DNA of 32,000 nt from Fibrobacter succinogenes subsp. succinogenes S85. GTDB taxonomy: Bacteria; Fibrobacterota; Fibrobacteria; Fibrobacterales; Fibrobacteraceae. Location of the stretch: contig NC_017448.1 of NCBI RefSeq assembly GCF_000146505.1, positions 90,001 to 122,000 of the forward strand. Reading direction: 5' to 3'. The stretch's first letter is position 1. Each line of letters opens with the position of its first letter. The notes under the pieces were generated by a model. That model saw only the letters and a list, made by a program, of their open reading frames with translations, was not told the origin of the DNA and searched no databases. Of the stretch, positions 1 to 28,404 are shown one piece after another. The translations under genes were made by a program, and so were the position numbers.

Positions 1-214
1 TCGCATTGGAATCCGCGCTGCCCGAAGCGGGCGCTTCTTGTTTTGCAGATGAAGAAGATTCTTCAGACTCGACAGATGAAGACGATTCTTCCGTAGAAGA
101 CTCTTCTTCGCCGATTTCAGGCGCAATAGAATCAAATGCAGCCGAATTGTCGTCTGCACACCCATAAAAACATGTACCCGCAATAGCGAGTGACCAAACC
201 AACAGTTTTTTCAT
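1..214 (-). CDS. Secreted or lipoprotein-like protein, N-terminal fragment (gene runs off the window start)
   Basis: Absent from the ORF track because no stop lies in the window. Reverse-strand ATG at 214..212 reads MKKLLVWSLAIAGTCFYGCADDNSAAFDSIAPEIGEEESSTEESSSSVESEESSSS..., open to position 1. It has a basic N-terminus, hydrophobic core and Cys (signal peptide or lipobox-like), then a Ser/Glu-rich low-complexity linker. Confidence 0.5.
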   Translation of the reverse strand, partial: MKKLLVWSLAIAGTCFYGCADDNSAAFDSIAPEIGEEESSTEESSSSVESEESSSSAKQEAPASGSADSNA

Positions 215-411
215 TATTATCTCATCCCTTGAAAAAACTAAACCCACACGTTCTATAATGGAATATATAGCGGTTTTCTATATAATAGACCGCTTTTATT
301 TGTTTTTTTTATTTACTGTTGTAAACGTTGAGAAGTTTTTTAGGGGGATGGGGCGAAATGGCACAAAAAAAAGGAATTTGTGACTAATTTGTGCTGTTAT
401 TTTTCTGTCAT

Positions 412-1248
412 TTATTTATGCATGAAGAAGACCGTGGCGTGGTCGCCGTAGCCTTTTTTGTTTGCTTCGGCCATTTTTTTATCGATGTCGATGATTTCGC
501 TTTTGGTGAAATACTTGAAAATTTCCTTCGGGTCCTGCTTCCAGAACGTGATGCCCTTGGTGTACAGGTAGCTCCTCAAAATGGCAGAGTTGTTGGAGTC
601 GAAAATCATCTGCACAATCTTGAAGCCGTGCTGGTTGGCGAGTAGTTTTAGGCTGTTGATGGAGTGCAAAAAGATGTGGCGCGGGGCGTCGAGCTGGTAC
701 CAGTTCTCTTTGTATTTTTCAAACGCAATATTGGGGTAGATGGGGAGTGTCATCTTGATGGTTCCGCCATTTGCCAAAAGGCGCTTGAGGATGTCCATGG
801 TCTCGTGCGGGTCGGTCATGTGTTCGAACGAATCGTTGAGCATGATGACGTCGAATTCGCCCGTCATTTCGTGGACTGTCTTCTTGAAAATTTGAACGCC
901 GTTTTCGTACGAGATATCTTTCTCGATGAACGGGTCGCAACCGATGAGGCTCTCGATGCCTGATGTTGCCGCCATGCTACAGAGCAATGCGCCTGCGCCA
1001 CAACCTACGTCAAGTACGCGTTTGTTGTACTGCGTCTTTGCGCGGGTGACGGTGTCGGCGGGCTTGTTGTAACTGTAGTAATTGGGGCCGTAGTATTCAC
1101 TCAAGTTTTCGGGAACGCTATTGATTTGCAAACACTTGCAGTGCGGGCATTCAAAATATTCAAAATGCCCTGCGTTTAAGTACATCATTTCCTTAGCAAA
1201 GTAAGATTTCGCTTCGGATGTTTCGCCACAAATTCTGCAAGTTTTCAT
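412..1248 (-). CDS. Class I SAM-dependent methyltransferase with N-terminal Zn-ribbon
   Basis: ORF 412..1308. SAM motif I is VLDVGCGAGAL. The N-terminus has CRICG...CPHCKC (CxxC...CxxC). The start is taken at internal Met MKTCRICG (ATG 1248..1246), which overlaps the upstream stop as ATGA. Confidence 0.85.
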   Translation of the reverse strand: MKTCRICGETSEAKSYFAKEMMYLNAGHFEYFECPHCKCLQINSVPENLSEYYGPNYYSYNKPADTVTRAKTQYNKRVLDVGCGAGALLCSMAATSGIESLIGCDPFIEKDISYENGVQIFKKTVHEMTGEFDVIMLNDSFEHMTDPHETMDILKRLLANGGTIKMTLPIYPNIAFEKYKENWYQLDAPRHIFLHSINSLKLLANQHGFKIVQMIFDSNNSAILRSYLYTKGITFWKQDPKEIFKYFTKSEIIDIDKKMAEANKKGYGDHATVFFMHK

Positions 1249-1766
1249 AAAAGTCCCCAAATGATAAGTCCAACGCCAATAAGGCCAAGAATGCTTATGA
1301 TGAACCAAAAATCCCGAGGGTGGTCTTCTCTTGTTCTTACTGCAGTCAAATCTCTTACGTACAGTCTTATTTGACCATCAAACAGACAGCCTAGTACAAA
1401 TACTAAAAGGCCTAGTCCACATGTAATAAAATTAAAGGGTGTGTACTGATTTGATGTATTGTCAGAGAATCCAATGCCTACAAAAATTAAGACCAAACCT
1501 CCGATTTTGAATGTAAAAGAACCAAGAGTTGTTTTATTTAGATATTTCTCGTTGAGTTTTTGGCTGTATTGCGGCATTGGCAAAATAGAATCTTTGTCGC
1601 CGGTGAGTTCTATAATGCGTTTCTCGATAATTCTGATTCGTTCTGGAGAATCGTCTGCTTGAAAGCCATGATCACGAATTTGGCTTAAAATATCGTAGAG
1701 CTCCTCGACGGGGAGCTCACGAATTTTTTTTTCGTAATCTTTGAGATATTCTTCAGAAAACGCCAT
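1245..1766 (-). CDS. Hypothetical membrane protein (soluble N-terminal ~80 aa plus about 3 TM helices)
   Basis: 173-aa ORF. Hydrophobic segments include LVLIFVGIGF, ITCGLGLLVFVLGCLF and FWFIISILGLIGVGLIIWGLL. Its stop overlaps the methyltransferase start (ATGA). No recognised family. Confidence 0.65.
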   Translation of the reverse strand: MAFSEEYLKDYEKKIRELPVEELYDILSQIRDHGFQADDSPERIRIIEKRIIELTGDKDSILPMPQYSQKLNEKYLNKTTLGSFTFKIGGLVLIFVGIGFSDNTSNQYTPFNFITCGLGLLVFVLGCLFDGQIRLYVRDLTAVRTREDHPRDFWFIISILGLIGVGLIIWGLL

Positions 1767-1785
1767 GTGCAGAATATACTAAAGA

Positions 1786-1809
1786 AATGACGTGCCGAAA
1801 CCCGTCATT
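1786..1809 (-). terminator. Candidate hairpin between the alpha-E gene and the downstream membrane-protein gene (weak terminator or attenuator)
   Basis: aatgacg (1786-1792) pairs with cgtcatt (1803-1809) around a 10-nt loop. On the minus strand it is followed only by the weak T-rich tract tctttag. Confidence 0.3.
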
Positions 1810-1839
1810 GTGATTTTATTTGAGTGTAATGGAATTTTT

Positions 1840-2769
1840 TTAGCAGAAGAAATCTTTCCAGATTTGATTGCCGAGTTCATTTAGGCGAATCTGGACTTTT
1901 TCAATTTGTTCGTGAAGCCCCTGGTCGATGATTTCTTCGATGGTCGTGAACGCGATGTCGGAACGCAGCTTGCCCAGGAGGCGGATGGATTCTGCCTTGC
2001 TTTTGACAGGGTAGGCGATGTTCTTGAGACACTGTTCCGCTTTTTCCAAGCAGTAACGCAAGGAGCGCGGAAAATCTTCGGAGAGCAGGAGAAATTCCGC
2101 GACGTTATGCGGTGTCACGTTTGAATTGCGACGGTGGAACATTTCGTATGCACCGACGCTCTTGAGAACGGCGTTCCACTGCACGGTATCGAGCGCCATG
2201 CCCACCATGCTCACATCCGGAAGCAAGATGTAATACTTGACGTCCAGAATACGCGAAGTCTGGTCGGCGCGTTCGAGCAATGTGCCGAGATGCGTGAAGT
2301 TCCAGGCGACATCGTGGTTCATCGTGCCTTGAATGATGCCTGCCGTGAGCTGGCTGAATTCCTTGACGCTATTGTAAAAAGCGTGTGGACCAGCCAATGC
2401 TTCTTTAGGCATTTCGGGGTCGTTTAGTTTCAAGTAAAACTGGTTGATGGCAATCCACAGTTCCGAAGAAATTCTTTCGCGGACGCAGCGGGCGTTTTCA
2501 CGGGCGGCCCCGACGCACGAAATGATGCTGTTCGGATTTTCCTTGTCAAACGTCAGGAACATGAGCGCGTTTTCAATGGAAACATGCGCGTATTTTTTGA
2601 AGAAGTCATCGGCATTGCCGGCAATTTGAATCACCGGTTCCCAAGGGCGTTCTTCGCCGGGCAAGTCCAGTTGCAGCTGGAGGTTCACATCGATGCTTCG
2701 CGCGACGTTTTCGGCGCGTTCGATATAGCGGGCGAGCCAATAAATGGAATTTGCGACTCTGCTTAACAT
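1840..2769 (-). CDS. Alpha-E domain protein (COG2307/DUF403 family)
   Basis: 309 aa. The N-terminus MLSRVANSIYWLARYIERAENVARSIDVNL is the typical alpha-E family opening. It lies 24 nt downstream of its ATP-grasp partner, with an AGGAAG RBS. Confidence 0.88.
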   Translation of the reverse strand: MLSRVANSIYWLARYIERAENVARSIDVNLQLQLDLPGEERPWEPVIQIAGNADDFFKKYAHVSIENALMFLTFDKENPNSIISCVGAARENARCVRERISSELWIAINQFYLKLNDPEMPKEALAGPHAFYNSVKEFSQLTAGIIQGTMNHDVAWNFTHLGTLLERADQTSRILDVKYYILLPDVSMVGMALDTVQWNAVLKSVGAYEMFHRRNSNVTPHNVAEFLLLSEDFPRSLRYCLEKAEQCLKNIAYPVKSKAESIRLLGKLRSDIAFTTIEEIIDQGLHEQIEKVQIRLNELGNQIWKDFFC

Positions 2770-2793
2770 ATTACACTTCCTACTTCTAAATTC

Positions 2794-4287
2794 CTATTGT
2801 TGTTGCTGTTGTTGTTCCATCCAAAGTTTAGCTTGTCCGAGTTCTGGAGCCTTTTCGTTTTCGGCAATGACCCATGTGTCCTTGCATCCGCCGCCCTGCG
2901 AGCTGTTCACCACGATAGAACCTTTGCGGAGTGCTACGCGAGTGAGGCCACCGGGGAGAATGTAAGTCTCTCGCCCTTGCACAATGTAGGGGCGCAAATC
3001 CACATGGCGACCTTCGAAACCGCCATCGACAAAGCAAGGCACGCGGCTGAGCGAAATCATGGGCTGCGCAATGTAGTTACGCGGGTTCGCGATAATCTTG
3101 CTCTTGAACGCCTCACATTCCTCCTTTGTCGATTTTGGACCGACGAGCATGCCGTAGCCACCGGATTCGCTGGCGGCCTTAACGACCATATTTTCGATGT
3201 GGTCCAACACATGCTGCATGTGCTTTGGGTTCTCGCATACAAATGTCGGCACATTCGGGATGATCGCCTCTTCGCCGAGATAGTACTTGATAATCTGCGG
3301 CACATAGGTGTAAATCGCCTTGTCGTCGGCAACACCGCAACCGGGCGCATTCGCAAGCGCTACGTTACCAGCCTTGTAGGCTTCAATCAGTCCAGGCACG
3401 CCGAGGCAAGAATCCGGGCGGAATACCTTCGGATCCAAGAATTCGTCATCGACACGGCGGTAAATCACGTGAACCTGCTTGAGGCCGCGCGTCGTGCGGG
3501 CATAGACCTTCTTGTCTTGCACAACAAGGTCGTCTCCGGTCACGAGGTCCACGCCCATCTGCTGTGCCAAATAGGAATGTTCGTAGTACGCCGAATTGTA
3601 GATGCCGGGTGTCAGCACCACGACCTTCGGCGATGCTGTAGAATCGGCCAAGTATTCCAACGCATGGCGCAGACGGGTGCAGTATTCGTCTACGGGTCGA
3701 ATGGAACAGTTGGAAAATACCTGCGGGAACGTACGCTTTAGAATCTGACGGTTCTGCAACACGTACGAGACACCACTCGGGCATCGCATGTTGTCTTCAA
3801 GTACGTAGAATGTGCCGTCGGTATCGCGCACAAGGTCTGTGCCTGTAATGTGCGCCCAGATTCCCTTGGGCGGCACAAAGCCTTCCATCTGCGCTCTGTA
3901 AGCGGTGCAGGTGTTGATGAGGCTTTCGGGGACGACCTTGTCACGCAAAATCTTGCGGTCGTTGTAGATGTCCGTCAAAAAGCAGTTCAGCGCTTCTGTA
4001 CGCTGTTTGAGGCCCGCTTCGAGGTGCTTCCAGTCGGCGGCGCTTACAATACGCGGGATAACGTCAAAGGGGATTATTTTGTCCTTACCGTCCTTGTTGC
4101 CGTAAACCGCGAATGTAATTCCGTTATCGTAAAACGCAGATTCCGCAATGATCTGGCGGCGTTGCAGTTCTCCTTCGGGGAGCTCGTTGATTTTCGTAAA
4201 CAACGGCTCTGCAGCCGGGCGGGGAGTCCCATCCGGTAAGCAAAGCTCATCGTAAAAGCCTTCGGTGTCGTAATTTCCAAATCGCAT
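2794..4287 (-). CDS. Circularly permuted type-2 ATP-grasp protein (COG2308, DUF404/DUF407 family) with C-terminal hexa-glutamine
   Basis: ORF 2794..4323. Family-typical N-terminus MRFGNYDTEGFYDEL is preceded by an AAGGAA RBS (ATG 4287). An alternative ATG at 4323 overlaps the upstream stop as ATGA. The protein ends ...AKLWMEQQQQQQ*. Confidence 0.85.
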   Translation of the reverse strand: MRFGNYDTEGFYDELCLPDGTPRPAAEPLFTKINELPEGELQRRQIIAESAFYDNGITFAVYGNKDGKDKIIPFDVIPRIVSAADWKHLEAGLKQRTEALNCFLTDIYNDRKILRDKVVPESLINTCTAYRAQMEGFVPPKGIWAHITGTDLVRDTDGTFYVLEDNMRCPSGVSYVLQNRQILKRTFPQVFSNCSIRPVDEYCTRLRHALEYLADSTASPKVVVLTPGIYNSAYYEHSYLAQQMGVDLVTGDDLVVQDKKVYARTTRGLKQVHVIYRRVDDEFLDPKVFRPDSCLGVPGLIEAYKAGNVALANAPGCGVADDKAIYTYVPQIIKYYLGEEAIIPNVPTFVCENPKHMQHVLDHIENMVVKAASESGGYGMLVGPKSTKEECEAFKSKIIANPRNYIAQPMISLSRVPCFVDGGFEGRHVDLRPYIVQGRETYILPGGLTRVALRKGSIVVNSSQGGGCKDTWVIAENEKAPELGQAKLWMEQQQQQQ

Positions 4288-4319
4288 GTTTTGTTTCCTT
4301 ATGCTTTTAGGTTTTCTTC

Positions 4320-5201
4320 TCATTCATCCCTAAGGTCCACGTTTACGGACACTTTCAAGGTATGCTCGCCACCTCCGGTGATGACGCCCTTTAACGGGCT
4401 CACGTCCCCGAAGTCTCTACCCCAGGCGAGTATAATGTGCTCGTTACCTCCAAGCACATTGTTGGTGGGGTCCAGTTCTACCCAGCCGTGGCCGGGAATG
4501 TAGGTGCTGACCCAGGCGTGGGTCGCGTCGGCTCCGACGAGTTTGGGTTGCCCTTCGCATGGATGCGTGCGGAGGTAACCGCTCACGTAACGGCAAGGCA
4601 AATGCAGTGAACGCAAGCAGCCTATCATCAAGTGTGCAAAGTCCTGGCAGACGCCTTTTCGTCCGCGCAAGATTTCTTGCGGCTGCGCCCCGATTCTCGT
4701 CGCTCCCGGCGTGTACTTGCAATCCGTGTAGATTCGCGTCATGAGCTCGTAGGCGGCGTCAAAAATGGGGCGGCCCTGCTCAAAGCTTTCGAGCGCGTAA
4801 TTGCGGACCGATTCGTCAAACTTGGCGAAAGGGGAGGCGTAGGCGTACATCGCGGCGTCTAGTGTTTCGTCGCTTGTCGGGCGTTCCAAAAGCTTTGCGA
4901 CATCTTCCCATTTCATCGTTTCACCTTGTTTTGGCGGTTCTTCTCCTTGAACGTCTACAATGCCGGTCGTTTTGAATCTAAAGTGTGTGTGTTCCTGCTC
5001 GATGCTGAATGCCAACACCTTGTTCCCGAAAATGTCGATGCGTTCTTGCCGAATTGTTGGATTCGGTTCCACTTCAATGCTGTGGCTAATCCAATTCTGT
5101 CGGCTGACAGTTCGCGGGAGCATGTGGGCGAGGTGGTTGCTGTAAAGAACGGGGAGGCGGTAGTCGTAGACGGTCTCATGGTCAACTTGATAAATGGGCA
5201 T
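4320..5201 (-). CDS. Transglutaminase-fold family protein (N-terminal Bact_transglu_N-like region plus transglutaminase core)
   Basis: Cys-His-Asp triad context is intact: GVCQDFAHL, ATHAWVS, ELDPTN. The start is at MPIYQVDHETVYDY (ATG 5201), with a GGAGG RBS 6 nt upstream and 1 nt after the upstream TAA. Confidence 0.88.
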   Translation of the reverse strand: MPIYQVDHETVYDYRLPVLYSNHLAHMLPRTVSRQNWISHSIEVEPNPTIRQERIDIFGNKVLAFSIEQEHTHFRFKTTGIVDVQGEEPPKQGETMKWEDVAKLLERPTSDETLDAAMYAYASPFAKFDESVRNYALESFEQGRPIFDAAYELMTRIYTDCKYTPGATRIGAQPQEILRGRKGVCQDFAHLMIGCLRSLHLPCRYVSGYLRTHPCEGQPKLVGADATHAWVSTYIPGHGWVELDPTNNVLGGNEHIILAWGRDFGDVSPLKGVITGGGEHTLKVSVNVDLRDE

Positions 5202-5202
5202 C

Positions 5203-7605
5203 TTAAACCTCCGACACATCCGTGGTTGTCGCGTGGAAAACTCCAGCGCGTGGCGCATGGCTTAAGTAGAGCCTGTTTACGATTTCTGCAATCCGTTCAA
5301 TAGAATTTATCTGTGTTTTTACAAGTTTTATGAGGTTCTCCCTTTTGTTATCTACAGTTTCTGCAAGCTGTTCAATGTTTGCGAGGCGCAGTTCTGCAAG
5401 CACGCGCATCAGTTCACGGTCGAGCGGCGAGAATGTCGCTTCGCTTTGGTCGTTCCCGGGCAAGTGCTTTGCTGCTTTCCGCAATTTTGCCACCTGGTAG
5501 GCGACGCTTCGCGGGTTGGATTCGTCTGACAAAAGCAAGTCGATGACGGGGACTACTTGCAAACGGCCTCCATAGCGGCGGTGGTATGTCATGAGCCCGT
5601 CGCCGATTTCAAGAACCGCTTGCAACAAGCGCAAGTTCGTCATCTCGTCAGTGGGGGCGGTGTATAGCAGACTTTTGACCAGTTGCAGGGTGCGGATGGC
5701 GCACTCGATTTCACGACCGAGTTCCAAAAAGCGCCATTCGTGGCCTCGCGTCATGGAATCGGCTGCAAGCCCGGCCACTGCAGCGCTGTCCGATAGGACC
5801 TCCTTTAGGTAGGGCAACAGCGCTGCCGCACCTGTTCCTGCCGGCACTTCTGCAATGCCAAATCCGTTCAAGTAAAGCCATAAATCCTCCGAAATGCGGT
5901 CGCGCAACTGCATGCCGAGCTCTCGAATTTCCGTCAGCACGCATTGTATGCCGTTCTTGTTGTCCTTGCGCAAGATAAAGTAACGGAGTGCGTTTTCTGG
6001 ATCTTGCGCGAGTCTGGACTGCGTTTCATCAGTAAGCCCTGCCTTCAGAATCCATGGCAGTTCCGGCATGTCCATCCAGGATTCGTCCGAGAGCCTCACC
6101 GCGATACCTCTTGCAATACGGGCCATCATGTTCGATGATGACAATGCTCGCCCCAGCCGGAACAGGTTCTCGGCCGCACGGCTAGGCAAATCGCCTCCAG
6201 CTCTCGACGGCGTAATCGCCTGACTTGCTGGAGCGAGCAAAGAAAAGTTCGCCACAGGATTTTCCGAAAGCACCCAAATGTCTTTTTCTCCAAGTCCTTT
6301 GTCTAAAATCCCAAGGCCGCCCGGCATCACCGAAGTCCCGTTCGCAGTATTCACCGCAAAGAATCTCATCAGCGAAACTGCCGGAGTGAACTCTCCTCGG
6401 TACGCGTAAACCACTGAAACTTCCATCGATCTTTCGGCCACCCATTGCTCGGGCGCATTCTCAACCGCTTGCAACAACGCAAGCTGTGCCGTCGTCGTCA
6501 TGGTCGCATAAGTCTTGGGTTCTGCCTCCTTGAAGCTTCCTTCGTCGCGGAATGCCTTCTTGAAAATCCATTTTTCGGGCTCTGCCAAAACGCGTTCCGC
6601 ATCAGTTGCATTCCCGAGCCAAAGTGTTTCCACATCGCGCAACAGCAGTTCTTCACCCAAAAGCTCGCGGCAAATCTCCGGCAAAAACGGCTTGAACACG
6701 GGCGTCTCTAGAACGCCAGTCCCGAGAAAGTTCGCAATCGCCACGTTCCCGGCGCGGACAGAACTGATTAAGCCCACGGCCCCTTCGCCGCTGTCAATTC
6801 GCAGTTCCAGCGGGTCGCACATGCCGTCTTCCACTCGGCGGAATATGGTCCCAATCTTCTTGAGTCCCATAAGCGTCTTCATGTACACTTGCATGTTGCG
6901 AATCGCGAGGTCATCGTTTTCGACAAGTGGGATCCCGAGGTAACGGGCGATTACTGCGTCTTCTGCTCGACGCGGATTGTCCGGACTCGATGCCAAAAGT
7001 ACCACCTTGCTGGTTTCACCTTCACCTCCTATGTTCTTGTGCATGGCGTCTAGGCCATCCATCAGCTTCTTGAAAAATCCTGCCAATCGTTCCGTTTGCA
7101 TGCTGCGGAAAAGCTCCGGGAATGCACGGCTTACGCCAATGCGGTTCTCCAGTGCACGCCCTAATCCATCGGGTACTTGCAAATGGTCCGATACCGCCAC
7201 GAAAGTTCCGTCTTTGAGCCTTACGACATCGGTGGATGTCAAGTTCACAAAGACATCGCCAACCGGGTGCACTTTCCATACAACCTGCAAAAAATCCGGG
7301 TTTGCAAACAATAGCGCGGCGGGCAACTTGCCTTTTTTCCAAAGACTTTGTTCGCCATAAATGTCTTTCGCGAGCGCGTTAAAAAGCTTTGCCCTTTGCG
7401 CAACGCCCGCTTCCAGCGTTTTCCATTCTTCGGCCGTAATCACGAGAGGGATGGGGTCTGTACCCTTGTGGTTGCCTCCCATGCTCGACGAAAGATCGTT
7501 CTCATCGAGAACGTTATGCAAACGCCTGCAGCGGTGCTCGAATTCCACTTTCGACAATGCCGAAATGGACCGGATAAAAGTATCTTCTGTCTCTACACAT
7601 TCCAT
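5203..7605 (-). CDS. Fused circularly permuted ATP-grasp plus alpha-E domain protein (800 aa)
   Basis: The N-terminal half resembles the stand-alone ATP-grasp (PIPLVITAEEWKTLEAGVAQRAKLFNALAKDIYG versus IPRIVSAADWKHLEAGLKQRTEALNCFLTDIY). The C-terminal ~320 aa starts with the alpha-E-like PSRAAENLFRLGRALSSSNMMARIARG. Confidence 0.85.
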   Translation of the reverse strand: MECVETEDTFIRSISALSKVEFEHRCRRLHNVLDENDLSSSMGGNHKGTDPIPLVITAEEWKTLEAGVAQRAKLFNALAKDIYGEQSLWKKGKLPAALLFANPDFLQVVWKVHPVGDVFVNLTSTDVVRLKDGTFVAVSDHLQVPDGLGRALENRIGVSRAFPELFRSMQTERLAGFFKKLMDGLDAMHKNIGGEGETSKVVLLASSPDNPRRAEDAVIARYLGIPLVENDDLAIRNMQVYMKTLMGLKKIGTIFRRVEDGMCDPLELRIDSGEGAVGLISSVRAGNVAIANFLGTGVLETPVFKPFLPEICRELLGEELLLRDVETLWLGNATDAERVLAEPEKWIFKKAFRDEGSFKEAEPKTYATMTTTAQLALLQAVENAPEQWVAERSMEVSVVYAYRGEFTPAVSLMRFFAVNTANGTSVMPGGLGILDKGLGEKDIWVLSENPVANFSLLAPASQAITPSRAGGDLPSRAAENLFRLGRALSSSNMMARIARGIAVRLSDESWMDMPELPWILKAGLTDETQSRLAQDPENALRYFILRKDNKNGIQCVLTEIRELGMQLRDRISEDLWLYLNGFGIAEVPAGTGAAALLPYLKEVLSDSAAVAGLAADSMTRGHEWRFLELGREIECAIRTLQLVKSLLYTAPTDEMTNLRLLQAVLEIGDGLMTYHRRYGGRLQVVPVIDLLLSDESNPRSVAYQVAKLRKAAKHLPGNDQSEATFSPLDRELMRVLAELRLANIEQLAETVDNKRENLIKLVKTQINSIERIAEIVNRLYLSHAPRAGVFHATTTDVSEV

Positions 7606-7617
7606 GCTCGTTTAGTC

Positions 7618-7632
7618 GCAAAAAATGTGCCA
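7618..7632 (-). promoter_or_regulatory. Sigma-54 (RpoN) -24/-12 promoter facing the ATP-grasp operon
   Basis: Reverse complement of 7618-7632 is TGGCACATTTTTTGC, which is TGGCAC-N5-TTGC with all 10 fixed positions matched. The TTGC ends 12 nt before the ATG at 7605. Confidence 0.75.
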
Positions 7633-7720
7633 AGGCTTATGTGGCTTAAAATCGCGTATTTTTATAATCTGTATTTTACATTTATTGAATTTTTTACAGA
7701 TTTTGTTGTATAAAGGGGCG

Positions 7721-7810
7721 GCGCATTTCACCGCATTTCACCGAATTTCACCGAATTCCCCCTAAAACCGGCGCGTTTCCCCGTTTTTTACCGCAATTTC
7801 GCATTTTGGC
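7721..7810. repeat. 10-bp-phased direct repeat array (CCGNATTTCA-like) between the two sigma-54 promoters
   Basis: Consecutive 10-mers: gcgcatttca, ccgcatttca, ccgaatttca, ccgaattccc, cctaaaaccg, gcgcgtttcc, ccgtttttta, ccgcaatttc, gcattttggc. There are four near-identical units, then degenerate units that keep the CG and T-tract phase. Confidence 0.8.
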
Positions 7811-7822
7811 ACGATTTTTGCA
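7807..7822 (+). promoter_or_regulatory. Sigma-54 (RpoN) -24/-12 promoter facing the acetolactate synthase gene
   Basis: TGGCACGATTTTTGCA matches the extended consensus TGGCACG-N4-TTGCW perfectly. It lies 39 nt upstream of the ATG at 7861. Confidence 0.8.
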
Positions 7823-7860
7823 AAACACTCCGCGGAGACATTTAAAAGACCTTTAGAATT

Positions 7861-9501
7861 ATGAACACTGCTGAAGTTTTGATCAAGTCCTTAGAAAGTG
7901 AAGGCGTCAAGTACATTTTTGGAATCCCTGGAGAAGAAACTCTCGAACTGATGGAAGCGATTAAAAAGTCGTCCATCAAGTTCATTACGGTGCGTCACGA
8001 ACAGGGTGCCGCTTTTATGGCTGATGTCTATGGGCGTTTGACGGGGAAGGCGGGCGTCTGCCTTTCGACCCTTGGCCCTGGCGCTACAAACCTTGTTACG
8101 GGCGTTGCCGATGCAAACTCCGATGGCGCTCCGCTGATTGCCATTACGGGGCAGGTGGGTACAGAGCGTATGCACTTGACGAGCCATCAATATTTGGACT
8201 TGGTAAACATGTTTACGCCGATTACCAAGCGCAGTAAGCAGGTCGTTCGCCCGGATACGGTGAACGAGATTGTCCGTATTGCGTTCAAGTATGCCGAAAT
8301 GGAAAAGCCCGGTGCATGCCACATCGACTTGCCGTGCAACATTGCCGCTATGGAAGTCGAAGGCGAGGTCGCTCAAACTCCGCTGAAACACCATCGCGAA
8401 AACACCGTATACGCAAGCACCGATGCGATTCTCGCGGCGGGCGGGGTCTTTGCGAATGCAAAGCGCCCGGTGGTTCTTGTTGGCCATTCTGCTGTGCGTA
8501 ACCACGCCTCCGAGGCTTTGCGTGCATTTGTGTCCTCGTCCAAGATTCCCGTGGTCTGCACCATGATGGCAAAGGGTGTAATCCCGACTTGCGAAAAGTA
8601 TTTTATGGGCTGCATCGGACTACCGCAAAGGGATTATCCGAACATCGTCATGGAACAGGCGGACCTCGTGATTGCCGTGGGTTATGACGTCGTGGAATAC
8701 GCGCCTGCCAAGTGGAACCCGAATGGCGACAAGATGATTATTCACATCGATGAAACTCCGAACCATGTGAACAAATTCTATCAGCCCGACGAAGAAATTA
8801 TTGGCGACATCTCCGCATCTCTCGACGCGCTCTGCAGCGTTTGTCCAAACTCCTGGGAACCGGAATGGGCCATGCAAATCCGTGCGATGATGGTGGCTGA
8901 GCATTCGCGTTACGATCACGACACTAGCTTCCCGCCGACACCGCAGAAGGTGCTGCACGACATCCGCCTTGTTCTAGATGAAGAAGACATTCTGATTTCG
9001 GACGTGGGTGCGCACAAGATGTGGATTGCCCGCCAGTACAATTGCGACCATCCGAACACCTGCATTATTTCTAACGGTTTTGCGACCATGGGTATTGCGG
9101 TGCCCGGCGCGATTGCGGCAAAGCTTTTGAACCCCAAGAAAAAGGTCTTGGCGGTCACAGGTGATGGCGGCTTTATGATGAACAGCCAGGAACTCGAGAC
9201 AGCTTACCGCGAACACATCCCGTTCGTGACGCTGATTTTTACCGATGGCGGCTACGGCCTCATCAAGTGGAAACAGGAAGAACGCTACGGCGACAGCTAT
9301 GCGGTCGAATTCACGAACCCGGATTACGTCAAGTACGCCGAATCCTTGCATCTGAAGGGCTACCGCATCGAACGCACCGAAGACTTGCCGAGCACCTTGC
9401 GCGAAGCCTTCCGCCAGGACGTGCCAAGCATCATCGAGTGCCCGGTGGACTACTCCGCGAACATGGAACTCTCGCAATACCTGAAGAATTTGAAAATATA
9501 G
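7861..9501 (+). CDS. alsS: Acetolactate synthase, catabolic AlsS type (ThDP-dependent)
   Basis: 546 aa. ThDP-binding motif is GDGGFMMNSQELET. Recalled similarity to B. subtilis AlsS: RHEQGAAFMADVYGRLTGK, SHQYLDLVNMFTPITK, IGYDVVEYAPAKWNPNGDKMIIHIDE...YQPDEEIIGDI and C-terminal PVDYS. Confidence 0.85.
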   Translation: MNTAEVLIKSLESEGVKYIFGIPGEETLELMEAIKKSSIKFITVRHEQGAAFMADVYGRLTGKAGVCLSTLGPGATNLVTGVADANSDGAPLIAITGQVGTERMHLTSHQYLDLVNMFTPITKRSKQVVRPDTVNEIVRIAFKYAEMEKPGACHIDLPCNIAAMEVEGEVAQTPLKHHRENTVYASTDAILAAGGVFANAKRPVVLVGHSAVRNHASEALRAFVSSSKIPVVCTMMAKGVIPTCEKYFMGCIGLPQRDYPNIVMEQADLVIAVGYDVVEYAPAKWNPNGDKMIIHIDETPNHVNKFYQPDEEIIGDISASLDALCSVCPNSWEPEWAMQIRAMMVAEHSRYDHDTSFPPTPQKVLHDIRLVLDEEDILISDVGAHKMWIARQYNCDHPNTCIISNGFATMGIAVPGAIAAKLLNPKKKVLAVTGDGGFMMNSQELETAYREHIPFVTLIFTDGGYGLIKWKQEERYGDSYAVEFTNPDYVKYAESLHLKGYRIERTEDLPSTLREAFRQDVPSIIECPVDYSANMELSQYLKNLKI

Positions 9502-9510
9502 GAGAACGAC

Positions 9511-9684
9511 ATGGGATACATCAATAGCCTATTTACAGGGCAAACGGATTCATTCGGTGTAGCCGTATCCGAATCCTCACATTTTCTTTCCATTGACAGC
9601 ATCTCGGGGCATCCTGCCGTTTATCGCCATCTGAAACCCTGCGGCAATGTCGATGAACATAAACAGCAGAAAAAGAACTTATAA
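9511..9684 (+). CDS. Candidate small ORF (57 aa), below the ORF-track size cutoff
   Basis: The alsS stop is followed directly by a GGAG RBS (TAGGAGAACGACATG) 6 nt before the ATG at 9511. The ORF reads MGYINSLFTGQTDSFGVAVSESSHFLSIDSISGHPAVYRHLKPCGNVDEHKQQKKNL*. No recognised family. Confidence 0.35.
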   Translation: MGYINSLFTGQTDSFGVAVSESSHFLSIDSISGHPAVYRHLKPCGNVDEHKQQKKNL

Positions 9685-9718
9685 AAAAAGACTCCTCCTC
9701 CATCCAACAATCAAAGAA

Positions 9719-9740
9719 CCGCCGGTAGCAATACCGACGG
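9719..9740 (+). terminator. Candidate hairpin terminator after alsS and the small ORF
   Basis: ccgccggta-gcaa-taccgacgg forms a 9-bp stem with one C/A mismatch. It is followed by the weak U-tract ctctttctgctttc. Confidence 0.35.
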
Positions 9741-9780
9741 CTCTTTCTGCTTTCGCTGCGCTCAAGCAGCAAATGCTCGG

Positions 9781-9826
9781 CTCGGTCATGCCAAAATAAA
9801 TTTTGGCGCGACTCTCGCCTTATGCA
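9781..9826. repeat. Copy A of a duplicated ~45-nt element with a central 8-bp hairpin
   Basis: ctcggtcatG CCAAAAT aa ATTTTGG Cgcgactctcg. Both flanks are identical to copy B. The stem is gccaaaat/attttggc. Confidence 0.7.
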
Positions 9827-9850
9827 TTTGTCTGTTTTTTTTTTCATCGT

Positions 9851-9880
9851 TCAATAAAAAATGGCGGGTCGAAACCCGCC
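9851..9880 (-). terminator. Rho-independent terminator of aspS
   Basis: Minus strand reads ggcgggt-ttcg-acccgcc followed by ATTTTTTATT, about 75 nt past the aspS stop. Confidence 0.8.
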
Positions 9881-9907
9881 ACAAATTAAAGTCGCAATAA
9901 TCTGCGC

Positions 9908-9952
9908 CTCGGTCATGGCGAAATGAATTTCGCCGCGACTCTCGGCTTGCGA
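9908..9952. repeat. Copy B of the duplicated hairpin element, abutting the aspS stop codon
   Basis: ctcggtcatG GCGAAAT ga ATTTCGC Cgcgactctcg. The stem is ggcgaaat/atttcgcc. Two paired substitutions relative to copy A keep the stem perfect. Confidence 0.7.
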
Positions 9953-11746
9953 TTATTTCTTATCAGCACCCTTAGGCATCTGCACGGAGATGTGGATGTC
10001 CTGCAACTGCTGGAGGTCCACTTCACTCGGGCACTGGTCCATCGGGCTAGAAGCACTCGTGTTCTTCGGGAAAGCGATGTAGTCACGGATAGATTCTTCA
10101 CCTTCCATGGTAGCAACAACGCGGTCGAGACCGAAGGCGAGACCACCGTGCGGAGGAGCACCGTACTTGAATGCATCGACGAAGAAGCCGAACTTGGTCT
10201 TCACCTGTTCTTCGGAGAGACCGAGCAAGCGGAACACCTTTTCCTGAACTTCCGGGTTGTGAATACGGATAGAACCACCGCCGATTTCCACACCGTTAAG
10301 AACAAGGTCATAAGCTTCGGCGTTGCAATCCTTGAGGTTGCCACCGAGCATCATGTCCAAATGTTCCGGAAGCGGGTTCGTGAACGGGTGGTGCATAGCC
10401 ATGTAGCGGCCTTCCGTGTCGCTGTATTCGAACATCGGGAATTCGGTAATCCAAACAAATTCACGCTTCTTCGGATCGCGGAGGCCCTTGATACGGGCGA
10501 CTTCCAAGCGAAGCTGACCCATAGCCGTAGCTGCAATCTTTTCCGGACCGGCGATGAAGAACATCATGTCGCCGCACTTAGCGCCAACAGCGTCGCGGAG
10601 TTCGTTAAGTTGTTCGGTTGTGAAGAACTTGCCAACCTGAGTTTCAACTTCGTCATTTTCCTTGACGCGCATCCACACGAGGCCCTTGGAACCGTACTTG
10701 GCAACGTAAGCCGTGAGTTCGTCGATCTGCTTACGAGTAAAGTCAACGCAACCCTTAGCAGCGATACCGCGAATCTTGCCACCAGCGGCAACGCAGTTCT
10801 TGAACACGCCAAAGTTGGACTTTGCACCGATTTCAGACACATCGTGAATTTCGAGGTCGAAGCGGAGGTCCGGCTTGTCGGAACCGTACTTGAGCATAGC
10901 TTCTGCCCACTTCATACGGCGGATGTGACGCGGCGGTTCGAAGTTCCAAACCTTGCCCAAAACTTCAGTCACGAACTTGTCGAACATTTCCATCACTTCG
11001 TCTTGGTTGACGAAGGACATTTCAACGTCAATCTGCGTGAATTCCGGCTGACGGTCAGCGCGGAGGTCTTCGTCGCGGAAACACTTGGCGATCTGGAAGT
11101 AGCGGTCCATGCCAGCAATCATCAAAAGCTGCTTGTACTGCTGCGGAGACTGCGGGAGGGCATAGAACTTGCCCGGGTTCACGCGGGACGGCACGAGGTA
11201 GTCACGTGCGCCTTCCGGAGTGGACTTGCAAAGGCACGGAGTTTCAATGTTTTCAAAACCGTTAGAATAGAAGAAGTCGTACACGGCCTTGAGGAAGCGG
11301 CTCTTGAGGAGGAGCTTTTTCTGGATCCACGGACGGCGGAGGTCCAAATAGCGGTACTGCAAGCGGAGGTCGTCGTTTTCCTTGCATTCTTCGTTCGGGT
11401 CGTTAATGGCCAAGGGAGAAGTGAGGGCGGCGTTCAGGATTTCGAGCTTGTCTGCCTTGACTTCGATTTCACCCGTGGCGAGCTTTTCATTCGTGTTGCC
11501 TTCTTCGCGGGCGTAGACCTTACCAGTCACGTAAATAACGTATTCGTTACGGAGCTGTTCGGCAGTTTTCAAAACATCGGCATTGTAATCCGGATTGAAA
11601 ACGATCTGGGTCTTGCCATACTTGTCGCGGAGGTCAACGAAAATCACACCACCATGGTCACGGCGGCGATCCACCCAACCGGCGAGTGTTACGGTCTGGC
11701 CAACATCTTCCTTGCGAAGCTGGCCGCAGTTATGTGTACGTTTCAT
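9953..11746 (-). CDS. aspS: Aspartate--tRNA ligase
   Basis: Class II aaRS motifs are present: FRDEDLRADRQPEFTQIDVEMSF, GGGSIRIH, GLAFGLDRVV. The start is at MKRTHNCGQLR (ATG 11746); the longer track ORF adds a non-conserved 26-aa extension. Confidence 0.95.
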   Translation of the reverse strand: MKRTHNCGQLRKEDVGQTVTLAGWVDRRRDHGGVIFVDLRDKYGKTQIVFNPDYNADVLKTAEQLRNEYVIYVTGKVYAREEGNTNEKLATGEIEVKADKLEILNAALTSPLAINDPNEECKENDDLRLQYRYLDLRRPWIQKKLLLKSRFLKAVYDFFYSNGFENIETPCLCKSTPEGARDYLVPSRVNPGKFYALPQSPQQYKQLLMIAGMDRYFQIAKCFRDEDLRADRQPEFTQIDVEMSFVNQDEVMEMFDKFVTEVLGKVWNFEPPRHIRRMKWAEAMLKYGSDKPDLRFDLEIHDVSEIGAKSNFGVFKNCVAAGGKIRGIAAKGCVDFTRKQIDELTAYVAKYGSKGLVWMRVKENDEVETQVGKFFTTEQLNELRDAVGAKCGDMMFFIAGPEKIAATAMGQLRLEVARIKGLRDPKKREFVWITEFPMFEYSDTEGRYMAMHHPFTNPLPEHLDMMLGGNLKDCNAEAYDLVLNGVEIGGGSIRIHNPEVQEKVFRLLGLSEEQVKTKFGFFVDAFKYGAPPHGGLAFGLDRVVATMEGEESIRDYIAFPKNTSASSPMDQCPSEVDLQQLQDIHISVQMPKGADKK

Positions 11747-11897
11747 GGTTGTATCCTTGAAGATTATTTTTCGGCGGGAAATATAGCATTTTTTATAGGA
11801 ATGGGGGAGGAAAGCCCCCCGCAACGCCCCCGAAAGTCCTATTGAAAAAGAACTATCAAATAATATATTGGATATTGAATAACGTTTGAGTTTTGCT

Positions 11898-12735: not shown

Positions 12736-13338
12736 ATGGCAGAAGATTTGCAAGCCCTTATGGAACGCATCCAGAAGGATGCTGTCGAAAAGGCAGAACT
12801 CGCAGCAGCAGATATTATTTCTAAGGCAAAGGACAAGGCGGCCGAAATTGTCAGGGCTGCCGAAGACGAAGCCAAAGCAAAACTCGAAAACGCCGATAAG
12901 GAAGCACAAGCATTTACAGAACGCAGCGAACGCACTTTGGAACAGTCCGCTCGCGATTTGCTCCTCTCGGTGGGCAAGAACCTCGAAAAGATGATTCTTG
13001 ATCTTCTCAGCCTCCAGATTGACAAGTCTCTCGATGAATCAACCGTGAAGAACATGCTCCTCACGGTTGCAAAGAGCTACACCTCCGACATCGAAATCAA
13101 CTTCTCCGAAGCCGATGCCAAGGCCCTCACGAGCTTTGTGATGGGCGAGTTTGCAAAGCAGCTCAAGGCTGGCGTCAAGGTCGAAAGCGACAAGGGCGTC
13201 AAGTTTGGTTTCCGCGTCAAGCTCGATGGCGGCAAGGTCAGCCACGAATTTACAGAACAGGCAATGGCGGAATCTCTTTCTGCCTTGCTCAGACCGCAAC
13301 TTGCAAAGATTGTAAACAAGGCCGCCCAGGGCAAATAA
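12736..13338 (+). CDS. atpE: V-type ATP synthase subunit E
   Basis: 200 aa. Charged coiled-coil N-terminus (MAEDLQALMERIQKDAVEKAELAAADIISKAKDKAAEIVRAAEDEAKAK). First gene of the V-ATPase operon. GGAG RBS. Confidence 0.85.
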   Translation: MAEDLQALMERIQKDAVEKAELAAADIISKAKDKAAEIVRAAEDEAKAKLENADKEAQAFTERSERTLEQSARDLLLSVGKNLEKMILDLLSLQIDKSLDESTVKNMLLTVAKSYTSDIEINFSEADAKALTSFVMGEFAKQLKAGVKVESDKGVKFGFRVKLDGGKVSHEFTEQAMAESLSALLRPQLAKIVNKAAQGK

Positions 13339-13347
13339 GGCGGTCCA

Positions 13348-13884
13348 ATGAGCAGTCCAGCATATTTGATGGCATCGCTTCCGATGCTAGAACTGGGCGA
13401 CGTTCCGCCCCTTAGCATGGCCGAGTTCCGTGGCCGTTGCGAAGGTGTGCTGGATGCCCCAGAACTCGAAGCGCTCGACGCCCTTTTAGCGGGCGAAGAG
13501 AGCGATGATGAATTTGTTAGGGAATACCAGTCCCGCGAAACCCAGATGAGAAATGTTTCAGGTAGGCTCCGCGCCCAGGCGTGGGGCCCTGAAGTGCGTT
13601 TTGCGGAACGTTCATTCTCTGGTTATGACGTCACCTTTGCGAAGATGATCCAGGACGCGTTCATGAAGTCAAATCCGCTTGAAAAGGAACAGGATATCGA
13701 CCGCGCCCGTTTTTGGCTTGTGGATAGCCTTGCCGGTGTAGGCGAGGGGACCATCAAGCACGTCTACGCCTATGCGATTAAGCTTAGAATCTGCGAGCGT
13801 TGGGCTCGCTTGAACGATATCGCAGGCGACAAGGCCGTCATCAATATTATTAATGAAAACGATCCTGCTTACAGGCAGGAATGA
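13348..13884 (+). CDS. DUF2764 family protein (V-ATPase-associated, Bacteroidetes-type operon component)
   Basis: 178 aa. The N-terminus SPAYLMASLPMLELGDVPPLSMAEF matches the DUF2764 opening pattern. Its position between E and A matches Bacteroidetes V-ATPase operons. Confidence 0.75.
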   Translation: MSSPAYLMASLPMLELGDVPPLSMAEFRGRCEGVLDAPELEALDALLAGEESDDEFVREYQSRETQMRNVSGRLRAQAWGPEVRFAERSFSGYDVTFAKMIQDAFMKSNPLEKEQDIDRARFWLVDSLAGVGEGTIKHVYAYAIKLRICERWARLNDIAGDKAVINIINENDPAYRQE

Positions 13885-13901
13885 GTGGAGGTCCATTTTC
13901 A

Positions 13902-15659: not shown

Positions 15660-16953
15660 TGTTGCTTACCATCGTATTGAACGCATTGCCGGTTCTGTGA
15701 TTACTTTGAGAGCCGAAGGCGTTGCAAACCAGGAACTGGCTCAGGTGACGAGCTCTTTCGGTACTTCTCTTGCCCGTGTGATCCGCATTGACGGTGACCT
15801 CGTGGACTTGCAGGTCTTTGCAGGTGCCCGTGGTATTTCCACGGACTCCGAAGTGCGATTCCTCGGTGAACCGATGAAGGTTCCGTACAGTGAAGCCTTG
15901 CTTGGCCGCGTGTTTAACGGTGCCGGCAAGCCGCGTGATAACGGCCCGGAAGTCGATGGCGAACGCATCACGATTGGCGGTCCCTCTGTGAACCCTGCTA
16001 AGCGTATCATTCCGAAGACGATGGTGCGTACGGGTATCCCGATGATTGACGTGTTTAACACGCTCGTCGTTTCGCAGAAGCTCCCGATTTTCTCGATTGC
16101 AGGTGAACCCTACAACGAACTTTTGGCACGTATCGCCTTGCAGGCTGAAGTCGACGTGATTATCCTCGGCGGCATGGGCCTCAAGCACGATGACTACCTC
16201 TATCTCAAGGATTACCTCGAAAAGAACGGTGCTCTTTCCCGTACGGTGATGTTCATGCATACCGCATCTGACCCGATTGTGGAATGCTTGCTCGTTCCGG
16301 ATGCATCTTTGGCTGTTGCTGAAAAGTTTGCAACCGAAGGCAAGAACGTGCTCGTGCTCCTCACGGACATGACGAACTTTGCCGACGCCATGAAGGAAAT
16401 CGCTATTACGATGGAACAGATTCCGTCAAACCGTGGTTATCCTGGCGACCTTTACTCTCAGCTCGCAAGCCGTTACGAAAAGGCTGTGGACTTTAGCGAT
16501 GCTGGTTCTATCACGATTTTGGCTGTGACCACTATGCCGGGCGACGACGTGACGCACCCGGTTCCGGACAACACGGGTTACATTACCGAAGGTCAGTTCT
16601 ACTTGCGCAAGGGCCGTATCGAACCGTTCGGTTCTTTGAGCCGCCTTAAGCAGCAGGTGAACGGCAAGACCCGTAGCGACCACCGTACCATCATGAACAC
16701 CATGATTCAGCTGTACGCGAGTTACAAGGAAACCTTGGAAAAGCAATCCATGGGCTTCAACATGAGCAACTGGGACCAGAAGCTGTTGAAGTACGGCGTA
16801 CGCTTCGAAAAGGAAATGATGGACCTTTCTGTGAACATCCCTCTTGAAAAGGCTTTGGATCTCGGATGGGAAATCCTCGCCGATTGCTTCACTCCTGAAG
16901 AAACCGGTATCCCCACCAAGATGATCAATCAGTACTGGCCGAAGAAGTGGTAA
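15652..16953 (+). CDS. atpB: V-type ATP synthase subunit B
   Basis: 433 aa. A/B-family fold without a canonical P-loop. Recognisable segments are [19 protein letters not shown] and [29 protein letters not shown]. It overlaps atpA by 8 nt. Confidence 0.93.
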
Positions 16954-16954
16954 T

Positions 16955-19515: not shown

Positions 19516-19554
19516 ACCAAGGGTTAAATCCCGCTACTTAATGAGGATAATATA

Positions 19555-20010: not shown

Positions 20011-20028
20011 TCGAAAGAGGTAGCACTT

Positions 20029-27722: not shown

Positions 27723-27725
27723 GGG

Positions 27726-28370: not shown

Positions 28371-28404
28371 TTTTATTTTCTTTGCTTGTTATTCAATGTG
28401 GTGT

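Follow-up and report, generated by a model that had tools for sequence, protein, structure and literature searches.

The 32,000-nucleotide (nt) stretch of the Fibrobacter succinogenes subsp. succinogenes S85 genome analysed here (contig NC_017448.1, positions 90,001 to 122,000; its whole length is hereafter called the window) contains between positions 1840 and 7605 four minus-strand genes arranged head to tail. These encode, in order, a fused protein with ATP-grasp and alpha-E domains, a transglutaminase-fold protein, a stand-alone circularly permuted (CP) ATP-grasp and a stand-alone alpha-E protein. The domains had been named in an earlier reading made from the letters alone (the sequence-only reading), and Pfam searches recovered each of them (lengths in amino acids, aa; ORF, open reading frame):

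5203..7605, minus strand: gene 1, fused CP ATP-grasp-like and alpha-E protein, 800 aa (Pfam)
4320..5201, minus strand: gene 2, transglutaminase-fold protein, 293 aa (Pfam; ORF as listed 5258..4320)
2794..4287, minus strand: gene 3, stand-alone CP ATP-grasp, a predicted ligase, 497 aa (Pfam; ORF as listed 4323..2794)
1840..2769, minus strand: gene 4, stand-alone alpha-E protein, 309 aa (Pfam)

All three protein families of the CP ATP-grasp/alpha-E/transglutaminase amidoligase system (PF14403/PF04174, PF04168 and PF08379/PF01841) are thereby found in the window. The stand-alone ATP-grasp (hereafter the split ATP-grasp) matches CP_ATPgrasp_2 (PF14403) at 6e-167 and the stand-alone alpha-E protein matches PF04168 at 1.5e-101. 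The fused protein contains CP_ATPgrasp_2 (2e-109, residues 53-432) followed by Alpha-E (PF04168, 5e-55, residues 473-780), and its two halves are paralogues of the stand-alone proteins, with 29% identity in each case (2e-55 for the ATP-grasp and 2e-20 for the alpha-E half). The transglutaminase-fold protein combines the Bact_transglu_N and Transglut_core domains, and none of the four proteins is covered by a curated NCBIfam family. The association of such genes was first noticed in 2008, and in 2009, as later papers citing the work relate, it was explained as a system of peptide synthesis or tagging that includes a peptidase; the families and the synteny described below bear out the assignment of the window's triad to this predicted ligation or tagging system, as the sequence-only reading had it. 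Its statement that no product or target had been established also holds for the literature searched, to 2026, where the only ATP-grasp activity recorded is the release of phosphate from ATP by a Yersinia orthologue.

An alignment of 34 split ATP-grasps with the N-terminal domains of 80 fused proteins, numbered according to the 497-aa protein, allowed a motif-by-motif comparison of the two families:

E164-D-N166: invariant in the split family; in the fused family the Glu is replaced with no consensus (Ala commonest, 44%) and the Asn is mostly Arg
K370: invariant in the split family; usually kept in the fused family (K349 in the window)
E374-S-G-G-Y-G: invariant in the split family; the Glu and the glycine loop are lost in the fused family (after K349 in the window)
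R427-H-V-D430-L-R432: invariant in the split family; D430 is lost in the fused family
V-V-N461-S-S: invariant in the split family; N461 is lost in the fused family
D321-D-K323: invariant in the split family; K323 is lost in the fused family

The fused protein of the window has S139-D-H141 in place of the E-x-N motif, and the fused proteins of Fibrobacter are further shortened by 11 residues in the surroundings of N461 and have neither R427 nor H428. In the alpha-E half of the window protein the ERAE motif is changed to SSSN and the ER motif to EC635. These motifs suggest that the split ATP-grasp is the catalytically intact copy, to which any ATP-dependent amide ligation in the window would be confined. 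Given the loss of the Mg/ATP motifs we conclude, with fair confidence, that the fused copy is inactive as an ATP-dependent ligase and is probably a pseudo-ligase. The description of the locus as a double ATP-grasp in the sequence-only reading was in this respect overstated, since residues for metal and ATP binding that never vary in the split copy are missing from the fused one. The split ATP-grasp is under strong constraint: the Fibrobacter protein is 75% identical to that of Melainabacteria and 53-65% identical to those of Planctomycetota and Acidobacteriota; the corresponding values for the fused protein are 46% and 36-39%.

Sequence searches matched the split ATP-grasp to the structure 3n6x (3e-158), which was deposited as a 'putative glutathionylspermidine synthase'. 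Foldseek recovered 3n6x followed by eukaryotic-type glutathione synthetases and GspSA of Escherichia coli, these last two at 11-14% sequence identity and a TM score of about 0.5, with RimK as a weak neighbour (E about 0.1). A profile of the split ATP-grasps compared with PDB sequences found 3n6x only, and therefore offers no residue-level alignment to canonical ATP-grasp enzymes. The motifs of the split enzyme nevertheless appear to match in pattern the E144-x-N146 and K364…E368-GGG elements of human glutathione synthetase, which we take to be its Mg/ATP ligands and glycine-rich loop. Glutathione synthetases and GspSA are thus the nearest characterised structural relatives of the split enzyme, sharing motifs of the E-x-N and K…E-GGG type. 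GspSA further offers a parallel to the pairing of an ATP-grasp with a transglutaminase-fold protein, in that its ligase and its papain-like Cys amidase work on one and the same amide bond. However, the system of the window has no CHAP domain, and the alpha-E partner is absent from those enzymes. The AlphaFold2 model of the split ATP-grasp is of moderate quality (pLDDT 67, with the C-terminus below 50) and is therefore silent on a docking site for its tail.

The alpha-E protein is modelled by AlphaFold2 as all-helical (pLDDT 87). It has no solved relatives by sequence, and the best Foldseek match has an E of 0.4 with TM scores below 0.3. Its invariant residues are S3-R4, R14, E17-R18-A-E20, R24, R90-E-N-A-R94, R97, E166-R167 and P234-R235, and the natural fusion of the two domains argues that alpha-E binds the ATP-grasp. 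The Cys-His-Asp context noted earlier in the transglutaminase-fold protein is indeed intact: the triad C185/H228/D244 of the 293-aa protein is invariant in 69/69 orthologues that follow fused genes, and is invariant also in the transglutaminase domain of DUF2126 proteins. The closest solved relatives are 3isr, a putative cysteine protease (2.7e-11), and 6g49.

In a scan limited to one genome per species, 80 loci with relatives of the fused protein were recovered from about 10 phyla, among them Fibrobacterota, Melainabacteria, Planctomycetota, Verrucomicrobiota, Acidobacteriota and Myxococcota; the ORFs of these loci were classified by means of the window's own proteins. Synteny across genomes, which the sequence-only reading had proposed to check, is strong: a transglutaminase of about 290 aa directly follows the fused gene in 69 of the 73 loci with enough sequence. 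Outside the clade of the window a protein of about 1100 aa precedes the fused gene in 48/62 loci, and Pfam identifies it as Bact_transglu_N and Transglut_core joined to DUF2126, a 'putative amidoligase'. In 32/79 loci the genes for the split ATP-grasp and alpha-E are found as a pair no more than 10 kb away from the fused gene. The usual order is ATP-grasp, alpha-E, transglutaminase-DUF2126, fused protein, transglutaminase, and in Phycisphaerae it is transglutaminase, transglutaminase-DUF2126, fused protein, transglutaminase, ATP-grasp, alpha-E. Independent gene calls and annotations agree for Desulfobacterium autotrophicum HRM2, a metagenome contig and an Enterobacter plasmid, and a simple triad is found on pSymB of Sinorhizobium meliloti. 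The window's gene order is common to the loci of Fibrobacter, SZUA-567 and Melainabacteria, and neither the window operon nor the loci of Fibrobacter and Melainabacteria (L001-L010) encode the transglutaminase-DUF2126 protein. When the remaining ORFs of the 80 loci were clustered, no further conserved partner family emerged; the top family, found in 8 loci immediately upstream of the fused gene, is probably the contig-truncated DUF2126 protein.

The co-occurrence of fused and split copies is hence the norm of the family, and not the peculiarity of this locus that it had first been taken for; the window is a reduced four-gene variant. The five-gene clusters of D. autotrophicum HRM2, an Enterobacter roggenkampii plasmid, Planctomycetota, Verrucomicrobiota and Acidobacteriota contain the same four protein families, with the small transglutaminase directly after the fused gene and the split pair in the same cluster. 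The window differs from them in lacking the transglutaminase-DUF2126 protein of about 1100 aa, in its order (fused, transglutaminase, ATP-grasp, alpha-E), in a more degenerate fused protein and in the polyglutamine (polyQ) tail of its ATP-grasp. Rv2566-Rv2569c together with Rv2409c-Rv2411c of Mycobacterium tuberculosis are another example of the five-gene type. Copies on plasmids are known from Sinorhizobium, Burkholderia, Klebsiella and Acinetobacter, among other genera. Nitrogen-related genes adjoin some individual clusters: a PotABCD-like ABC transporter lies upstream in D. autotrophicum (L081, 2101-5828), and a gltB glutamate synthase and an acetamidase/formamidase gene flank the cluster on a Skermanella plasmid (L086, 341-4885 and 11817-13040).

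The split ATP-grasp of the window ends in …APELGQAKLWMEQQQQQQ, and this end is encoded by the following element:

2797..2814, minus strand: codons of the hexaglutamine tail of the ATP-grasp (…LWMEQQQQQQ-COOH), EQQQQQQ being the sole run of at least four Gln among the 83 long reading-frame segments of the window

A polyQ tail of 4-9 Gln, encoded by mixed, species-specific CAA and CAG codons, is present in every locus with the window's order (Fibrobacter, SZUA-567 and Melainabacteria) and also in Kiritimatiellia. Among the ATP-grasps, 120 cluster representatives with identities of 62% or more were surveyed: polyQ tails are present in 27/120, QxQ repeats (QSQSQ, QTQ and similar) in 29/120 and GGxHA ends in 14/120, several of the latter annotated as Desulfobacterota. 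Gln accounts for 17.7% of the residues in ATP-grasp tails, as against 3.3% in the protein bodies and 2.7% in the tails of fused proteins. Where the ATP-grasp has no tail, the alpha-E protein often bears one (e.g. …TQNQTQTQHQS or …TQSQFQSQSSSS), and 13/19 of the long-tailed alpha-E proteins are Gln-terminal; the transglutaminase also sometimes carries a Gln tail (L016, L059 and S. meliloti). Under a stringent definition, namely at least two QxQ motifs or a run of at least three Gln within the last 25 residues, such tails are distributed as follows:

ATP-grasp: 9/33 loci
alpha-E: 6/34 loci
small transglutaminase: 1/69 loci
fused protein: 0/79 loci
transglutaminase-DUF2126: 0/48 loci
other neighbouring ORFs: 0/679

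The combined frequency in ATP-grasp and alpha-E proteins (15/67) compared with that in neighbouring ORFs (0/679) gives a Fisher p of 4e-17, or 8e-8 without the window clade, values which ignore phylogenetic relatedness. Likewise, 11 of the 2320 ORFs in the 80 loci (1.4 Mb) end in polyQ, and all 11 are members of the system. Gln-rich tails thus specifically mark the ligase-module proteins in a range of phyla, and the variation of both tail sequence and host protein between clades argues that they were gained repeatedly. Nothing on these tails was found in the searchable literature, the original 2009 prediction paper lying outside that search. Transglutaminase-fold enzymes act on peptide-bound Gln, and ligases of the glutathione synthetase type act on the C-terminal carboxylates of peptides, so the tails would make a chemically sensible built-in substrate for the system. 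The statement in the sequence-only reading that no substrate is visible may accordingly have been wrong, although that the Gln-rich tail is in fact the substrate is a tentative suggestion, which we regard as possible rather than probable.

The fused protein has a conserved end of a different kind. In the window-type clade (L001-L010; Fibrobacter, SZUA-567 and Melainabacteria) the C-terminus …HAPRxGVxHA(M/T)(A/S)(T/S)EV-COOH is kept, the window protein ending in …TTDVSEV (codons 5203-5250, minus strand). This C-terminus is absent from the fused proteins of other phyla, and it could represent a docking or a substrate end.

The four genes form a tight operon, with intergenic gaps of 1, 32 and 24 nt. 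The start of the transglutaminase is ATG 5201, preceded by GGAGG at 5212-5208 and situated 1 nt past the TAA of the fused gene; the upstream ATG 5258 is rejected as the start. The ATP-grasp starts at ATG 4287 behind the ribosome-binding site AAGGAAAC, with the start M(R/Q/K)FGNY..EGFYDE that is common to all related loci, and the apparent ATGA overlap at 4323 is therefore only the product of an over-extended ORF. Consequently, of the translational coupling proposed earlier for all four genes, strict coupling stands at the first junction (fused protein and transglutaminase) and falls at the other two, with their gaps of 32 and 24 nt. Comparison with shuffled controls showed no convincing internal promoter or terminator within the operon. 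A weak hairpin past the last gene was read by eye, having been missed by the terminator scan because its loop exceeds 8 nt:

1781..1807, minus strand: weak terminator-like hairpin TGACG…CGTCA followed by TTTCTTT

No separate small conserved ORF was found in the operon, the flanks or the intergenic spacers of related loci, and where the spacer between transglutaminase and ATP-grasp is longer, in L001 and L003, none of its small ORFs is conserved. This agrees with the earlier observation that a precursor-peptide-sized ORF is missing: there is no stand-alone precursor gene in any of these places. An Rfam scan of window positions 1-10000 gave no riboswitch or leader RNA, and PADLOC models matched none of the four proteins (0 families). 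The downstream genes for a 173-aa membrane protein and a methyltransferase are conserved beside the operon in no related locus, and the flanking acetolactate-synthase-like gene likewise is not kept with it outside the closest relatives. A 314-aa ORF antisense to the ATP-grasp gene (window 2797-3741, plus strand) is probably a spurious shadow ORF. In some relatives within Fibrobacter the transglutaminase/ATP-grasp spacer is enlarged by GC-rich palindromic units, GGTGAYCCCGGCAC…GCCGGGRTGAC, with 4 copies in L001 (7497-7738), 1 copy in L010 (5683-5750) and none in the window; L003 (13347-13494) is also listed for this expansion.

The region upstream of the fused gene contains several potential regulatory elements placed between two divergent transcription units:

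7618..7632, minus strand: sigma-54 element TGGCACATTTTTTGC, with the -24 GG and -12 GC, an exact match to the consensus TGGCAC-N5-TTGC
7666..7702 (arms 7666-7673 and 7695-7702), no strand: perfect 8-nt inverted repeat AATCTGTA / TACAGATT, from an inverted-repeat search
7807-7821, plus strand: second perfect sigma-54 element TGGCACGATTTTTGC, facing the opposite way
7861-9501, plus strand: gene for an acetolactate-synthase-like thiamine-pyrophosphate enzyme (NF006187, 817 bits)

The motif TGGCAC-N5-TTGC precedes the fused gene in 7/7 Fibrobacter or Fibrobacteraceae loci recovered, despite upstream DNA that is diverged and unalignable between the deeper Fibrobacter branches. Three exact motifs occur in the window against 0.09 expected by chance, and of the 20 on the gene strand in the 1.4 Mb of related-locus DNA, 7 are at the operon position; a further one is found ahead of the cluster in one verrucomicrobial genome. 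Judged from this conserved motif the operon is predicted to be sigma-54 dependent, in line with what had been proposed from the window alone. The -12 element ends 12 nt upstream of the fused-gene ATG in 5/7 Fibrobacter loci, including the window, with insertions of 68 and 37 nt between the element and the ATG in L002 and L005. The 12-nt distance places the predicted transcription start at or beside the start codon; despite this, the first 41 codons of the fused gene are conserved, with many synonymous changes. As no Shine-Dalgarno sequence precedes the gene and the distance is so short, translation of the first gene may start from an mRNA with little or no leader.

The second sigma-54 element is located 40 nt upstream of the divergent acetolactate-synthase-like gene, and near-consensus forms of it are seen in L001 and L010. 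Together the two divergent promoters, separated by 172 nt, constitute an inverted repeat of 16 nt, and they probably have activator sites in common. The 8-nt inverted repeat between them is a candidate site for an enhancer-binding protein, and alignment of the upstream regions reveals TACA...TGTA-like elements in the corresponding position of other Fibrobacter loci. A 10-bp tandem repeat, GGTGAAAT(T/G)C in the minus-strand reading, with about 4 copies (window 7719-7768), also lies between the promoters, and has no conserved counterpart in L001 and L010, the closest relatives. The third exact motif of the window, TGGCACGTACATTGC (18057-18071, plus strand), is inside the gene for V-type ATPase subunit I and may be a chance occurrence or an internal promoter.

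Regulation of homologous operons, on which the sequence-only reading did not touch, has been documented in Proteobacteria. BCAM1233-1236 of Burkholderia cenocepacia are among the genes most strongly dependent on NtrC and sigma-54 under nitrogen limitation, and PP_2685-2688 of Pseudomonas putida are induced 11- to 37-fold by nitrogen limitation and also on nitrate as compared with ammonium. In marine metagenomes the domains of the system co-vary with urea-metabolism domains. (A Caulobacter NtrC paper and a Shewanella vesicle-screen paper were set aside, as they concern other proteins.) By analogy with Pseudomonas and Burkholderia, the Fibrobacter operon is probably induced by nitrogen limitation. 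The proteobacterial operon, comprising ATP-grasp, alpha-E, transglutaminase and the proteasome homologue Anbu (PP_2685-2688 and Yersinia bercovieri), has an orthologous triad in the window, with the split ATP-grasp about 50-55% identical to the proteobacterial copies and with sigma-54 control, documented there, matched by a sigma-54 promoter here. It differs from the window, which has an extra fused paralogue and no Anbu gene; of the 32-kb window's ORFs that were scanned with Pfam, none matched Anbu or another proteasome family.

Taken together, these observations suggest that the operon is a sigma-54-driven, reduced version of a widespread, cytoplasmic CP ATP-grasp/alpha-E/transglutaminase amide-bond system, organized in two modules and with a tail as substrate, an account that we hold to be about evenly balanced between being right and wrong as a whole. 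In the first module the ATP-grasp (497 aa) and alpha-E (309 aa) would constitute an active ATP-dependent carboxylate-amine ligase, resembling eukaryotic glutathione synthetase and glutathionylspermidine synthetase, enzymes whose target is a peptide's C-terminal carboxylate. In the second, the fused 800-aa paralogue and the Cys-His-Asp transglutaminase would form its hydrolytic or transamidating counterpart, with the pseudo-ligase retaining the fold and supplying substrate recognition to the transglutaminase. The near-invariable pairing of their genes suggests that the two work together, and there seems to be an even chance that they are partners. The substrate would be protein-borne, namely the Gln-rich C-terminal tail of the ligase module, here EQQQQQQ-COOH on the ATP-grasp. 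The transglutaminase might act on the Gln side chains of the tail by deamidation or acyl transfer, releasing NH3, and the ATP-grasp might join an amine to the resulting or terminal carboxylate. In its most specific form, this would amount to a write/erase cycle on a built-in substrate, switched on by nitrogen limitation, in which the transglutaminase is guided by the pseudo-ligase and the ligase adds an amine or amino acid. Taken in full, this cycle is speculative and, in our estimate, rather unlikely.

The opposition of a ligase and a reverse enzyme would be comparable to that of PafA and Dop, or of GspS and the Gsp amidase. In pupylation PafA is the ligase and Dop the deamidase and depupylase, and the C-terminal Gln of Pup is deamidated before ATP-dependent ligation. 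The likeness to the present system, drawn from general knowledge, is one of logic only: a ligase accompanied by a homologous non-ligating paralogue, and alpha-E or ATP-grasp tails many of which end in Gln. The pupylation enzymes, however, have an unrelated, glutamine-synthetase-like fold, and Pfam scans of the window ORFs found neither PafA/Dop-type domains nor a Pup gene, nor a proteasome. ATP-grasp ligases that modify the C-terminal tails of proteins are also known, such as RimK on S6, LysX on LysW, and tubulin tyrosine ligase and polyglutamylases. They share with the proposed reaction ATP-grasp chemistry on acidic or Gln/Glu-type tails, but belong to other subfamilies, and in the window the tail sits on the enzyme module itself.

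Alternatively, the system might make a small molecule, with two active ATP-grasp modules catalysing two successive ligations to yield a peptide or a gamma-glutamyl or polyamine conjugate under nitrogen stress, the transglutaminase-fold enzyme being the matching amidase and the tails irrelevant disordered ends. The closest characterised structures point in this direction, as glutathione synthetases and GspSA have small peptides as substrates and couple their ligase to a papain-like amidase; so do the name under which 3n6x was deposited, the polyamine-type ABC transporter adjoining the cluster in D. autotrophicum, the presence of polyamine transport genes in the same NtrC regulon in Burkholderia, and the lack of a precursor gene. 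Two active modules are nevertheless hard to reconcile with a fused copy devoid of E-x-N, the Glu and glycine loop and other invariants of the split copy. This scheme also leaves unexplained the confinement of polyQ/QxQ tails to ATP-grasp and alpha-E (15/67 vs 0/679), and across the 80 loci no transporter or metabolic gene is kept with the cluster; it thus appears doubtful, at much the same level as the full tail cycle. Tagging of proteins by the ligase for breakdown by a transglutaminase-fold protease or deamidase, with Anbu in other bacteria, would recycle amino acids and ammonia in nitrogen starvation, and corresponds to the original tagging prediction as related by the papers that cite it. 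It would fit the nitrogen-limitation response of homologous operons, the association of Anbu in Proteobacteria and cyanobacteria and the protease activity reported for Rv2569c of M. tuberculosis. Yet neither Anbu nor any other protease gene is present in the operon or the 32-kb window, no tag gene is present, the degenerate fused paralogue is left without a role, and in the proteobacterial operon no peptidase activity of Anbu was seen and no association with the other operon proteins; we consider it improbable. Far less likely still, and largely refuted, is a ribosomal peptide natural-product cluster of the graspetide or microviridin-like type or an anti-phage defence system: ATP-grasp enzymes and peptidases do occur together in peptide clusters, a general resemblance, but the locus has no precursor ORF, transporter or immunity gene, its ATP-grasp is of the CP, glutathione-synthetase-like class and not the graspetide class, the cluster is kept as a core-like unit in about 10 phyla, and no PADLOC model matched.

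Several points also weigh against the two-module account with a tail as substrate. About a quarter of the loci and many homologues, including 3n6x and the Enterobacter plasmid copy, have no Gln-rich tail, so the tail cannot be a universal substrate, and the tails could simply be disordered linkers, as the low confidence of the modelled C-terminus (pLDDT below 50) might suggest. Some fused proteins of other phyla keep the Lys, the Arg and part of the motifs, and might retain activity. The assignment of the Mg/ATP ligands rests on a resemblance of motifs to those of the human enzyme and on a Foldseek TM of about 0.5. As sigma-54 governs many functions, nitrogen limitation is for Fibrobacter only an analogy. 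In the literature searched no experiment has shown a product, a complex or a modification of the tail. When all four proteins of the Yersinia operon were co-expressed in E. coli, YbAnbu pulled down no other operon protein; in that study the ATP-grasp, alpha-E and transglutaminase were not probed against one another. Rv2569c, the M. tuberculosis transglutaminase homologue, was reported to be a secreted protease blocked by serine-protease inhibitors, a report that sits uneasily with either model. Rv2411c and Rv2567 of the same organism made no GABA-trehalose, being negative candidates in a preprint.

The gene set is found in thousands of bacteria across many phyla, with relatives studied in M. 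tuberculosis and Pseudomonas. In Pseudomonas and Burkholderia nitrogen starvation induces few genes as strongly as its homologues, and after more than 15 years no product has been reported for it. The present locus leaves this question unsolved, yet makes it more directly testable. The division into an apparently intact ligase module and a degenerate paralogue indicates which protein should be treated as the ligase and which as an adaptor, and the polyQ/QxQ tails of the ligase-module proteins, a statistically robust hallmark, point to a protein-borne substrate. The sigma-54 link would extend beyond Proteobacteria to Fibrobacterota, in a minimal four-gene form. If true, the tail cycle would be a new self-contained modification of bacterial protein tails, and the Fibrobacter operon its minimal version.

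Elsewhere in the window lies a complete V/A-type ATPase operon (12736-20484, plus strand). It has genes for subunits A, B, D and I and a tandem pair of proteolipid genes whose c domains are duplicated, while its small subunits match Pfam weakly or not at all. Two DUF285 (BspA-like repeat) proteins of 367 and 647 aa are encoded at 26619-30348 (minus strand) in a region of 35-42% GC, compared with about 52%, which may be a horizontally acquired surface-protein island. At 9923-11845 a 640-aa ORF on the plus strand and a 623-aa ORF on the minus strand overlap almost completely; the former has no Pfam or NCBIfam match and is conserved in L001 (1213 bits).

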